A stretch of DNA of 20,717 bases, taken from the UHGV virus genome UHGV-1961940; one strand, 5' to 3'. A model generated the notes under the pieces. It made no database searches and had not been told where the DNA came from. It saw only the letters and a program-made list of their open reading frames with translations. The DNA comes from a virus. The position numbers and the translations under genes are program-made. Positions 3,485 through 19,053 of the stretch are shown one piece after another. Position 1 is the first letter of the stretch. Each line of letters begins with the position of its first letter.

Positions 3485-3512
3485 AAAAAGCCCCACCCTT
3501 TCGGGCAGGGCC
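3485..3512 (-). terminator. Rho-independent terminator on the minus strand, immediately after the 68-aa gene stop.
   Basis: Minus-strand RNA reads GGCCCUGCCCGAAAGGGUGGGGC followed by UUUUU. This gives a 4-bp plus 3-bp GC stem with a 2x2 internal loop and a GAAA tetraloop. Confidence 0.6.
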
Positions 3513-3517
3513 TAGTG

Positions 3518-11520: not shown

Positions 11521-11548
11521 AAATAGAAAATCCCCGCCGAAGCGGGGG
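11521..11548 (-). terminator. Rho-independent terminator on the minus strand between the 126-aa gene and the hydrolase gene.
   Basis: Minus-strand RNA reads CCCCGC-UUCG-GCGGGG, a 6-bp GC stem with a UUCG tetraloop, followed by AUUUUCUAUUU. Confidence 0.6.
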
Positions 11549-14459: not shown

Positions 14460-14738
14460 TTAGGCAATTGTCATTTTACATTCTTGAAATTTTAACACAA
14501 GACGGTAATTGTGTCTAGTGTCTAAAAAGATTTTTTCAACCATCAGGCACACGGTATAACCGTCCATCTTGTTGACAACAAAATCTCCAGGATGAGGGAG
14601 GATGTCTCCCGGATTGGGGAAACATAGTCCACTCAGAAAGGCATCGTCAGTGGTGGACTTAATAGATTTCCACACACTGTCTGCCTGAACATGTTCACCG
14701 ACGTAATATACATTACCACATGCCTTCATCATAGTCAA
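14460..14738 (-). CDS. Hypothetical protein, 92 aa.
   Basis: ORF whose start overlaps the stop of the upstream 299-aa gene. Confidence 0.55.
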   Translation of the reverse strand: MTMMKACGNVYYVGEHVQADSVWKSIKSTTDDAFLSGLCFPNPGDILPHPGDFVVNKMDGYTVCLMVEKIFLDTRHNYRLVLKFQECKMTIA

Positions 14739-15634
14739 ACCCTCGCATAAATTAAACTTGTATCAGTATACTTCTTTAATGGGTAAATATCCTGTCCATA
14801 GATGCAATCATTAAACACCTCATCTACCCAAAGGCTACACTTATATCCCATCATTTCTAAAACACCCATCTCTTCTTCGGTAAACTTATCACCGCTCTTG
14901 CAAGATGTCAATACCTCATTCTGAACTCTTGCTACCTCGAAGCGGTTATTGGCAATATCGCTATTGGCGATCAAATACTCACCTAGAGGGTGTGCGGCAT
15001 TAAAGATGCACAGTGGACGGCTGACGTAATAGTCTCCAGGTGTATAAAAATTGTTGAGGTCTTTCACTAGAACATTCTTATCAGTCACTTCATTTATAAC
15101 ATCATGCATATCGCACATCTTTATATGTTTGAGGATTCCATCCCCCATCACAAAATAAAAACTTGCTGAGACACTTTCGGCATAGATCTTACTAGATCCG
15201 TTGTAGTTGTATTTTACTCGGATGCTAACGGGGGTTTTTCCTGTCGCGTTAGCCATCATCCAAAGAAATGGCAGCTCATACTTCTCCTCTGAGGAAACAA
15301 AAGGTGAGGTAGCCAGAGATCGAAAACCTCCAGAGAAGTTGAAAGTTACAGAACCGCTCCGGCGGTATGATACCGCGTATTCTACTTTTATATCGACATA
15401 CCCATTGGAATAGGTGTGTCCTTCATTATCTAAATATGTCCACTTATCAGACCCAGATACCAATCTACGCTCAATAACCTTCATCACTATAGGAATTAAT
15501 GGGTTGGTACAAACCGCTTTTGAAGTAGCTTTATCATCTAAAGCCTCGTAAATTGCAGAAAGGATGTCCCCAGCTGAAAGATTGGTTGTTATGTCCTGTT
15601 TCCACCGCGTACTAAAACTGTTAAGATTTGCCAT
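14735..15634 (-). CDS. Hypothetical protein, 299 aa. It is the first gene of the leftward operon.
   Basis: An AGGAG SD lies 9 nt upstream of the ATG at 15634. The gene is immediately downstream of the predicted leftward promoter. Confidence 0.65.
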   Translation of the reverse strand: MANLNSFSTRWKQDITTNLSAGDILSAIYEALDDKATSKAVCTNPLIPIVMKVIERRLVSGSDKWTYLDNEGHTYSNGYVDIKVEYAVSYRRSGSVTFNFSGGFRSLATSPFVSSEEKYELPFLWMMANATGKTPVSIRVKYNYNGSSKIYAESVSASFYFVMGDGILKHIKMCDMHDVINEVTDKNVLVKDLNNFYTPGDYYVSRPLCIFNAAHPLGEYLIANSDIANNRFEVARVQNEVLTSCKSGDKFTEEEMGVLEMMGYKCSLWVDEVFNDCIYGQDIYPLKKYTDTSLIYARV

Positions 15635-15674
15635 AAGTAAGTGCTCCTATGTTAGTTTTCTTTCGAATGGGTGC

Positions 15675-15703
15675 ACTATATTGTGGAGTTAGAGTAAAGT
15701 CAA
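15675..15703 (-). promoter_or_regulatory. Sigma70/SigA-type promoter for the leftward operon: TTGACT, 17 nt, TATAGT.
   Basis: On the minus strand, the -35 TTGACT is the revcomp of 15698-15703, the spacer is 17 nt, and the -10 TATAGT is the revcomp of 15675-15680. It lies about 40 nt upstream of the ATG at 15634. Confidence 0.5.
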
Positions 15704-15721
15704 CACGTTTTTGATGTTGAC
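15699..15721. promoter_or_regulatory. Candidate operator: perfect inverted repeat GTCAACA-N9-TGTTGAC. Each arm contains a -35 hexamer of one of the two divergent promoters.
   Basis: GTCAACA is at 15699-15705 and TGTTGAC at 15715-15721. The left arm overlaps the minus-strand TTGACT. The right arm overlaps the plus-strand TTGACA at 15717-15722. Confidence 0.4.
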
Positions 15722-16754
15722 ATCTGTTGAGACAATTGATACGATTTCTTCACTTACAGAGCACGAGAGACGACTCATGAATCTTGAAAAATATTATACA
15801 CCAGAAGAGTTAGAGCGCTTGCTCAAAAAATATAGACGCAAACAGAATAACGCACGGAAACGAGATATAGAGTTCGACCTGTCATGGGAAGAATACCTCC
15901 TATTTGGTAAAAAACTTTTAGGAGATGGAGTATGCGACTATACCCTTATACCTTTTGACATGCACACAGATGAAAACGGGCTGGGGAATCCTTTCTACCC
16001 ATCCCTGGAGCGGATAGATGATGAAGGTCCTTATGCGGTTGATAACTGTTGTGTGGTGGGATTGAGATGCAACTCTCTAAAGGACTGTCTGGTAGATAAA
16101 AAGACTGCAGTCTTGATTAAAGACGAAACTGATCGAAAAATTGTCCAGCAGATGATGCTCCACCTGAGCGAAGAGCGTATGGAGAAATTGAAAGGTGATT
16201 ATACTTTTGAAGATTTCATCTTGCAATATGGAACGGAAGAGGATAAACTAGCACTCTTTGACGAAGAAGAGGAGGAAGATATGCTACCGATGTCTAAAGT
16301 TACTTATCGTGCACCCAAGAAGCACATTTCCGACATTGTAAACGAGCCTATCACAGAAGAGATTGAAGAAATGACGCAACAGGTGCATGAAGAGGAAAAA
16401 GAGACTCAGGAGGTCGAAGAGGAGCTTACAGAAGAGGTTCCTGCACTACCTGATGATGTTGAGATTGCCAAAGCTTACACTTTCTATTGTCAAACGTTCT
16501 ACGATGTAGGTATGAAAGTTGATCTGTCGTTCAGCCAATTTAAGAGTTCGTATATTCGCAAATGCTGTGCTTTAACTGGTGAACGTCTTGGAGCTGGACT
16601 TAAACCCCTGTTGGTGACCGACTGGAATAAAGGTTTCACTAAAGGAAACTTTATGGTAGTATCTCCAATTATGAAGAAAGCTATGACAGATCTTATGAAG
16701 ACCACCCGCATGACAATGACCGAGTTGGCAGGTATTTTCAAACACGTTAAATAA
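15711..16754 (+). CDS. Protein with two tandem, degenerate Endo VII-like (HNH-fold, recombination endonuclease VII family) modules. The start is uncertain: TTG 15711 or ATG 15714 have no SD; the ATG at 15777 has a weak GAGAGA SD. An internal in-frame start at 16281/16291 with a GAGGAGG SD could give a nested C-terminal isoform.
   Basis: Module 1 is ARKRDIEFDLSWEEYLLFGKKLLGDGVCDYTLIPFDMHTDENG...LRCNSL. This resembles Endo VII family RKxYGIxxEEYxxLxxxQGGxCAICG...VDHDHxTG...LLCxxCN. Module 2 is IRKCCALTGERLGAGLKPLLVTDWNKGFTKGNFMVVSP, with DWNK in place of DHDH. The assignment is by remembered motif pattern, not by search. Confidence 0.5.
   Translation: MMLTSVETIDTISSLTEHERRLMNLEKYYTPEELERLLKKYRRKQNNARKRDIEFDLSWEEYLLFGKKLLGDGVCDYTLIPFDMHTDENGLGNPFYPSLERIDDEGPYAVDNCCVVGLRCNSLKDCLVDKKTAVLIKDETDRKIVQQMMLHLSEERMEKLKGDYTFEDFILQYGTEEDKLALFDEEEEEDMLPMSKVTYRAPKKHISDIVNEPITEEIEEMTQQVHEEEKETQEVEEELTEEVPALPDDVEIAKAYTFYCQTFYDVGMKVDLSFSQFKSSYIRKCCALTGERLGAGLKPLLVTDWNKGFTKGNFMVVSPIMKKAMTDLMKTTRMTMTELAGIFKHVK
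15717..15745 (+). promoter_or_regulatory. Candidate rightward promoter: TTGACA, 17 nt, TACGAT.
   Basis: The -35 is a perfect TTGACA at 15717-15722. The -10-like TACGAT at 15740-15745 has the TAnnnT pattern. If this promoter is used, the rightward gene more likely starts at the ATG at 15777. Confidence 0.3.
16285..16313 (+). repeat. Copy 2 of the perfect 29-nt start-codon repeat (MSKVTYRA), inside the Endo VII-like ORF directly after a GAGGAGG motif.
   Basis: Identical to the revcomp of 14423-14451. Confidence 0.85.
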
Positions 16755-16758
16755 TGAC

Positions 16759-16775
16759 AGGGGCCAATGGCCCCT
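16759..16775 (+). promoter_or_regulatory. GC-rich hairpin AGGGGCC-AAT-GGCCCCT just after the Endo VII-like gene stop. It sequesters the ATG at 16767.
   Basis: 7-bp stem with a 3-nt loop, followed by TCTGGAGTTTTAATG. It may act as an attenuator or terminator and argues for the downstream start at 16788. Confidence 0.3.
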
Positions 16776-18263: not shown

Positions 18264-18527
18264 ATGGCAACAGAGTTAAAATTTGCATCAAACCGTAAAA
18301 CTAAGAAGTATCTGTCCTCAGTAGCTCCAGGCACTGTGGTGATGTTTGTTGATGAACTTGGGGATGTGAATACAGCACTTGTTGTAAAATCACATCCTGC
18401 AAACATATATGTTGGGGTATTTGACCTGTTCAGAAAGGTGTTTGTAGAACTGCCTCACAGTTTGGTTGTTACAGAAATGGATGCCTGCATAGAAATTCTT
18501 GGCGAAGTTATGGTGGAGGAACAATAA
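18264..18527 (+). CDS. Small protein, 87 aa. Paralog 1 of a four-member tandem family.
   Basis: MATELKFASNRKTKKYLSSVAPGTVV...VTEMDACIEILGE. A GAGGAGG SD is present. It aligns clearly with paralog 2. Confidence 0.65.
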   Translation: MATELKFASNRKTKKYLSSVAPGTVVMFVDELGDVNTALVVKSHPANIYVGVFDLFRKVFVELPHSLVVTEMDACIEILGEVMVEEQ

Positions 18528-18790
18528 TGGCTACCAGCATTGTATTCAATTCTAAGGTGAAGAACAAAAAGCGTGCAGACAGTTTTCCGTGTGGGACCGT
18601 GGTAAGTTGCGACGGAGACGGCATTCAAAACATAGTTATGATTGTCAAAACAGGAGAACATTGTGTGTGGGGGTTCGATTTAGAAAATAATGAGTTGTAC
18701 GATCTGCCGCCAAACATGAAAGTTACAGAGCTTGACACCAAAATTACCATCCTTGGAGAGACAAGCTATTCAAAAGAAGGAGGAGAATAA
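18527..18790 (+). CDS. Small protein, 87 aa. Paralog 2.
   Basis: MATSIVFNSKVKNKKRADSFPCGTVV...VTELDTKITILGE. The start is TAATG-coupled to paralog 1. Confidence 0.65.
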   Translation: MATSIVFNSKVKNKKRADSFPCGTVVSCDGDGIQNIVMIVKTGEHCVWGFDLENNELYDLPPNMKVTELDTKITILGETSYSKEGGE

Positions 18791-19053
18791 TGACCACAAA
18801 AATCACTATCGCAGAACCGAAAGCTAACACTCAGCCTATCGAAAAGTTTAAGTACGGTGAGGTGGTAACATTCACACCAGATAATGAAGATGCTAAGATT
18901 TTCGCAATGGTCACAGCTGAGTGGATGTGTGACAACACCACACAGGTTCTGCGTTTTGACACCTATCTTACCGATGAAATCAGGAACGACAAGATTGTGA
19001 CTGGTGTGGATACTGAGATTGTTTTCTACAAGAGCTTTTTAGAGGGTTTCTGA
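18790..19053 (+). CDS. Small protein, 87 aa. Paralog 3 (more diverged).
   Basis: MTTKITIAEPKANTQPIEKFKYGEVVTF...KIFAMVTAE. TAATG-coupled. GAAGGAGGAG upstream. Confidence 0.6.
   Translation: MTTKITIAEPKANTQPIEKFKYGEVVTFTPDNEDAKIFAMVTAEWMCDNTTQVLRFDTYLTDEIRNDKIVTGVDTEIVFYKSFLEGF

Follow-up and report, generated by a model that had tools for sequence, protein, structure and literature searches.

The window analysed here, a stretch of 20,717 nucleotides from the virus genome UHGV-1961940, carries a perfect inverted repeat, GTCAACA-N9-TGTTGAC (15699-15721), between two divergently oriented genes, and this locus raises the question of whether the repeat is a regulatory site in its own right or a consequence of the promoters that it overlaps. 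A first-pass annotation had taken it for a single operator, at which one dimeric repressor would shut off transcription in both directions at once and which would serve as the master early switch of the element. Our analysis favours another answer: with a probability of roughly four in five, the site consists of two host sigma70-type promoters, homologous to promoters P010 and P011 of phage rV5, that are set compactly back to back in the genome of a virulent rV5-like myovirus. Rather than an element of its own, the inverted repeat is a by-product of the two -35 boxes and of the TG or G that commonly extends them upstream.

The 5.5 kb surrounding the site are 99.9% identical to Escherichia phage Murica and 90-100% identical to about 120 other rV5-like phages, and the 701 bp centred on the site are 100% identical to Murica. 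These relatives belong to the genus Vequintavirus, subfamily Vequintavirinae, and are virulent myoviruses of ~136 kb; no RNA polymerase gene is annotated in Murica. The site lies in a non-coding gap of 142 bp (15635-15776) between homologues of rV5 genes 10 and 11, a junction that is one of the two points in the genome where gene orientation diverges.

Both predicted promoters lie within this gap and face outwards. On the minus strand, the -35 box TTGACT (15698-15703) makes up most of the left arm of the repeat (15699-15705) and is followed after 17 nt by the -10 box TATAGT (15675-15680). On the plus strand, the -35 box TTGACA (15717-15722) makes up most of the right arm (15715-15721) and is separated, again by 17 nt, from the -10 box TACGAT (15740-15745), which together with a TG at 15737-15738 forms the extended -10 element TGaTACGAT (15737-15745). 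The 13 bp between the two -35 hexamers (15704-15716) hold a run of five thymines (15708-15712; A5 on the minus strand), located in the spacer of the repeat, cgtttttga (15706-15714). An independent consensus scan scored both promoters at 10 of 12 hexamer matches. Their start sites are predicted at adenines near 15668 on the minus strand and near 15752 on the plus strand, about 84 bp apart, which would give leaders of 34 nt leftward and 25 nt rightward; the two -10 boxes are 59 bp apart. The first-pass annotation had placed the repeat, the hexamers and the 17-nt spacings correctly, and its recognition of divergent promoters is supported as well.

A divergent pair at this position is in fact already known, since it was published for rV5 in 2013 (Kropinski et al. 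2013, Virol J 10:76, PMC3606486). Table S4 of that work gives P010 as CAAAAACGTG-TTGACT-...-TATAGT on the minus strand, and Table S4B gives P011 as TTGACA-...-TGATACGAT on the plus strand. The rV5 locus aligns with the window without gaps, and the hexamers of the window are those of P010 and P011. Public records agree with this picture: the rV5 record DQ832317 annotates a 'Sigma70-type promoter; P11' at the homologous position, and the record of phage Gotham carries PhagePromoter features on both strands at positions equivalent to exactly 15675-15703 and 15717-15745 of the window. All these published or annotated versions of the two promoters are computational predictions.

The conservation of the junction was followed in an alignment of 14 sequences, namely the window, rV5, FV3, V18, JEP1, SYGMH1, phiWec189, Aya and six IMG/VR contigs, two of them at ~90% protein identity and four at 62-65%; ten of the 14 sequences are from within the genus. 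The IMG/VR search, run with the gene 11 protein, yielded six loci, enough to cover a clade at intermediate distance and too few for co-variation statistics. The two -35 hexamers, 12 bases in all, do not vary among the 14 sequences, and within the genus five of the six positions of the -10 boxes are invariant; in relatives the rightward -10 box reads TAAGAT. The promoter spacers are always 17 nt long, yet within the genus they are invariant at only 5 of 17 and 7 of 17 positions. Hexamers that are kept while the spacer sequence drifts at a fixed length are the mark of promoter-type conservation.

The arms of the repeat are not conserved in the same manner. The right arm takes four forms, TGTTGAC (four of the aligned sequences), GGTTGAC (five), GATTGAC (one) and AGTTGAC (four), while the left arm reads GTCAACA in 12 and GTCAATA in two (C or T at 15704), so that only the rV5/Murica lineage has the perfect 7-bp repeat. 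A 6-bp symmetry is kept by most of the other aligned sequences, and one (L012) retains only the 5-bp core. Among about 117 GenBank relatives, the exact 35-mer of the window is found in 68, and the FV3 allele GGTTGAC, which lacks the seventh pair, in 31. The distance between the hexamers also varies: it is 13 bp, and becomes 14 bp in L011 and L014 through one extra T in the T-run, a run that is kept in all 14 sequences (as T6 in two).

The repeat itself is accounted for by the promoters. Taken alone it does exceed chance, with one exact copy in the window and one in the 135-kb Murica genome against 0.03 expected from Markov simulations; once two near-consensus -35 boxes are taken to stand back to back, it does not. 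The symmetry between GTCAA and TTGAC arises because outward-facing -35 boxes are reverse complements of each other. Five of the seven bases of each arm thus belong to the -35 core TTGAC, and the remaining two per arm are CA at 15704-15705 and TG at 15715-15716. In Murica, TG is the commonest of the 16 dinucleotides that precede TTGAC (66 of 395 occurrences) and stands before 20 of 73 promoter-like TTGAC sites, which are loose matches; the heptamer TGTTGAC occurs 66 times against 17.7 expected. Nine of the 27 published rV5 promoters have TG directly upstream of the -35 box, and 13 have G at that position. When these 27 promoters were paired back to back, 12.8% of the pairs yielded perfect arms of at least 7 bp, and a repeat of this size is therefore unremarkable wherever two such promoters adjoin.

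On this basis we propose that Escherichia coli sigma70 holoenzyme would bind each predicted promoter independently and transcribe outwards. Leftward transcription would use TTGACT-N17-TATAGT, start near 15668 and run through the homologues of rV5 open reading frames (ORFs) 10 to 3 to end at the terminator t003; rightward transcription would use TTGACA-N17-TGaTACGAT, start near 15752, pass through the Srd-like gene 11 and then meet a hairpin. A probable role of the conserved A/T run between the boxes is that of an upstream promoter (UP)-like element, at least for the leftward promoter: the C-terminal domain of the polymerase alpha subunit (alpha-CTD) makes contacts with A-tracts, and in 12 of the 27 rV5 promoters AAAA occurs no more than 10 nt upstream of the -35 box. 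We infer that both promoters would be active early in infection. Shut-off of the two directions, if it occurs, would more plausibly result from a global change of the polymerase than from a site-specific repressor. Some interference or coupling between the two promoters may occur, since each promoter's upstream region extends over the -35 box of its partner.

Several observations weigh against two independent promoters as a full account of the site. The consensus scan barely discriminates, with 44 sites found against 36 expected in shuffled sequences, and the searchable literature yielded no transcription start-site mapping or RNA-seq for any Vequintavirus, so both promoters still stand as predictions. 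Within the genus, the inner spacer of the repeat is invariant at seven of its nine positions and is thus better kept than either promoter spacer. Phage Aya shows a joint change: the base directly upstream of both -35 boxes has gone from G to A on the two sides together, which keeps a 6-bp symmetry. Lastly, agreement with the consensus is limited to 8 of 12 positions for the leftward promoters proposed in other genera. The conserved inner spacer and the paired change in Aya leave some room for a further constraint on the sequence, for example from a UP element or from a bound protein.

Another reading is a coupling of the two promoters, in which the alpha-CTD/UP region of each would overlap the -35 box of the other and binding of polymerase in one orientation would either block or favour its binding in the opposite one, giving a fixed ratio of, or a toggle between, leftward and rightward early transcripts. 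The conserved A/T run between the boxes would suit such an arrangement, as would the distances seen in other genera. There, the gene 11 homologue retains a strong rightward promoter, with an opposing box 3-4 bp away in Seunavirus, in Mydovirus Ro1, in Avunavirus and in Henunavirus: AATCAA-GTG/GTA-TTGACA in PVP-SE1 and EC152, AATCAA-GTG-TTGACA in Ro1, AGTCAA-CGC-TTGACA in Av-05 and AAGCAA-GTGG-TTGACA in Hena1. Gaps of this length are located at ~1420-1437 of L007, ~1430-1445 of L008 and ~1398-1413 of L010, in L023 and L026, and at ~65465-65480 of Murica itself. Vequintavirus and the IMG/VR clade L013-L016 have a gap of 13-14 bp, against 3-4 bp in the genera just named and at the second divergent junction of Murica, a difference of about one helical turn; under coupling, the gap would be held at one of these two helically equivalent lengths. 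This fit is loosened by the +1 bp variants L011 and L014, by the weak consensus matches of the putative leftward promoters in the other genera, and by the ~84 bp between the predicted starts, at which the core footprints of two polymerases need not clash. We consider coupling of this kind unlikely.

Somewhat harder still to credit is the more specific proposal that, with the gap held at 3-4 or 13-14 bp throughout Vequintavirinae, the locus forms a coupled bidirectional unit, where polymerase on one side would keep off or recruit polymerase on the other, or that in Vequintavirus only a small phage protein recognises GTCAAC-N11-GTTGAC. If either were true, the ratio or the timing of the early transcripts on the rII side and on the Srd side would be set at this site. 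Phage Mydo has an intergenic gap of 70 bp with no opposing partner box, and ChuuTotoro and SSBI34 have an upstream gene that runs in the same direction.

The other divergent junction of Murica, between genes 73 and 74 (Murica 65,380-65,530; L005 ~15380-15530), reads TTTCAA-GTG-TTGACA and has a gap of 3 bp; that outward-facing boxes recur there, and before the gene 11 homologue in the four other genera, speaks for the promoter-pair reading. Its leftward promoter is clear and corresponds to the published rV5 promoter P081, TTGAAA-N17-TATACT. Rightward, TGTTGACA is followed by no convincing -10 box at 16-18 nt, in agreement with the rV5 authors, who found no bidirectional pair there.

We find it very improbable that the site is a dedicated operator, where one dimeric repressor of phage or host origin would occlude both -35 boxes and shut the two early units together. 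The perfect 7-bp repeat does offer two equivalent half-sites over the two -35 boxes and is unique in the genome, the exact 35-mer is shared by those 68 GenBank relatives, and in Aya the change on both arms preserves symmetry. Against it, five of the seven arm bases are -35 core and the other two a dinucleotide common in promoter context. The arm bases outside the hexamers are not conserved: the extension of the right arm is TG, GG, GA or AG, the 31 records with GGTTGAC lack the seventh pair and the symmetry of L012 falls to 5 bp. Half-site spacing is longer by 1 bp in L011 and L014 and shorter by 10 bp in four sister genera, and more distant relatives keep the rightward promoter without an inverted partner. 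One dimeric repressor could not use half-sites whose separation is 16 bp in one genus and ~8-9 bp in another, a change that independent promoters can tolerate.

The genome offers no wider context for such an operator either. Further copies of the palindrome, whose search the first-pass annotation had suggested, were absent in any meaningful form from the window (up to three mismatches) and from Murica (up to two mismatches, variable spacing), and over the whole Murica genome no convincing operator copy with up to two mismatches was found at any promoter. The idea of a master early switch fares no better: the phage is virulent (according to the taxonomy of the records, and described as lytic), and it has dozens of other sigma70-like promoters, none of which shares the palindrome; the rV5 paper reports 33 (PMC3606486), and Murica has 73 loose matches. 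No repressor or helix-turn-helix (HTH) family was detected among the flanking genes, where nine proteins were compared with Pfam and seven with PHROGs, and these scanned genes match no DNA-binding family. The earlier remark that no HTH repressor is obvious was thus right for the flanking genes, as expected of a virulent phage; one HTH protein, gp71 at ~64 kb, is annotated elsewhere in Murica.

That the palindrome acts as a structure, whether as a minus-strand hairpin terminator, a cruciform or a replication-origin element at the GC-skew switch, can practically be dismissed, for although a scan flags the repeat as a weak terminator-like site of the minus strand and the sign of the GC skew switches between 15 and 16 kb, the stem has 7 bp with three G-C pairs, a 9-nt loop and a poor T-tail (TTTACTCT), the single-stranded DNA folds at just -5.4 kcal/mol (z = -1.96), which led us to reject hairpin, terminator and cruciform alike, the position upstream of both predicted starts, between diverging genes, excludes a terminator role, and the skew switch, ascribed by the rV5 authors to the change in transcription orientation (PMC3606486), is explained by gene orientation without an origin.

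A third TGTTGA is present at 15725-15730, 10 bp downstream of the right arm and within the spacer of the rightward promoter, in addition to those at 15715-15720 and 15700-15705. This copy is broken in SYGMH1, L011 and L012, that is, in three of the ten sequences of the genus, and absent from the clade L013-L016, and we rejected the idea of a binding array to which it would belong. Phage Aya (L017) shows an identical G to A change (xATTGA) in each of the three copies, which concerns a single lineage and could be due to chance.

The back-to-back promoter pair would feed one transcription unit leftward and one rightward. The rV5 genome paper proposes four transcriptional units, one comprising genes 10-1-238-164 and another genes 11-26 (Kropinski et al. 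2013, PMC3606486). Leftward, the intrinsic terminator t003 (11532-11547, minus strand) was found by our scan, is annotated in Murica and Gotham and is listed in rV5 Table S4D; it probably ends the first unit after eight genes, ORF10 to ORF3. The leftward region also contains two internal promoters on the minus strand, rV5 P4 (13359-13331) and rV5 P231 (3562-3534), and another internal terminator, a strong one, at 3488-3513. The leftward operon of 25 genes announced by the first-pass annotation was therefore overstated. Rightward, a perfect, G+C-rich hairpin, GGGGCC-AAT-GGCCCC (16760-16774, plus strand), lies directly after the gene 11 stop codon; it has only a weak T-tail and is entered in Murica's record as a terminator. 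It is probably a partial terminator of the rightward unit, which suggests that gene 11 is partly insulated from the downstream metallopeptidase/VWA gene.

The first leftward gene (14735-15634, minus strand) encodes a 299-aa homologue of rV5 ORF10 to which no function is assigned; it has no Pfam match and falls into phrog_12338, a family of unknown function, and some public records name it a putative alpha-1,3-fucosyltransferase. The first rightward gene (15777-16754, plus strand) encodes a 325-aa homologue of rV5 gp11, Srd-like, with an HNH/EndoVII-like N-terminal region and no Pfam match. Its PHROG matches include HNH endonuclease, 'decoy of host sigma70' and 'Srd anti-sigma factor', and the Srd/'sigma70 decoy' and HNH/endonuclease VII matches both cover residues ~13-130. 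Public records variously call this product an anti-sigma factor, an anti-termination protein or an HNH endonuclease. A part for the Srd-like gp11 in the switch from early to late transcription is a speculation of the rV5 authors (PMC3606486).

Two further observations concern the surroundings of the locus and the records used. A tandem array of three genes, each encoding 87 aa and either adjoining its neighbour or sharing one base with it, occupies 18264-19053 of the window (plus strand); the three are diverged paralogues, the second and third being 38% and 19% identical to the first. Sixteen near-identical genomes that are 91-99% identical to rV5-like phages of E. coli have been deposited as 'Campylobacter phage' with Campylobacter jejuni as host, which looks like a problem of host assignment or contamination.

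Reading the site as two promoters has little import beyond annotation. Its lesson is that an inverted repeat across outward-facing -35 boxes should be called an operator only if conservation extends to the bases beyond the hexamers and to the distance between the half-sites. Every promoter of the rV5-like phages is still only predicted, and phage cocktails directed against E. coli O157 make use of these phages.

Set beside known systems, the locus resembles the operators of temperate phages and the LexA-type operators in having an inverted repeat over -35 boxes between divergent genes. It differs from them in the lack of a cognate repressor among the scanned flanking genes, in its unconserved outer half-site bases, its variable spacing and its single copy, and in belonging to a virulent phage. 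Its architecture is that of back-to-back divergent promoters, a class reportedly included in the classification of Beck and Warren in 1988: two non-overlapping core promoters on opposite strands with abutting upstream regions and, here, predicted start sites ~84 bp apart. Many cellular members of this class have a regulator site between the promoters, whereas the comparative data give no evidence for one here.

Bidirectional promoters with a symmetric -10 element (Warman et al. 2021, as summarised in PMC10268837 and PMC12825309) provide another parallel. In that class, one near-symmetric -10 element is shared by the two directions and the starts are 7-25 bp apart, usually 18. The likeness is that symmetry at a divergent promoter is a by-product of promoter elements, and the difference is that the present locus has two complete promoters, symmetry in the -35 boxes and predicted starts ~84 bp apart, which places it outside that type.

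Within the subfamily Vequintavirinae, the early promoters of Certrevirus follow the consensus AAAA(N3-4)TGTTGAC(N17-19)TATAAT, described for Pectobacterium phage CB7 and for Cronobacter phages CR3, CR8 and CR9 (PMC7344957). Its TGTTGAC heptamer, an extended -35 box, is the very arm of our palindrome, and the leftward promoter, which reads AAAA-ACG-TGTTGAC-T-N17-TATAGT, has both the A-tract and TGTTGAC. The rightward promoter has TGTTGAC too, but a T5 run in place of the A-tract, and only ~30% of the sigma70-like promoters of Vequintavirus carry the TG. The P010/P011 pair of rV5, which was predicted in silico and published without comment on the inverted repeat, occupies the same locus, with gene 10 on one side and gene 11 on the other, and has identical hexamers, the same 17-nt spacing, the same palindrome and a 35-mer that is 100% identical to that of the window; the two loci differ at a few positions in the spacer of the leftward promoter and in nothing of substance.

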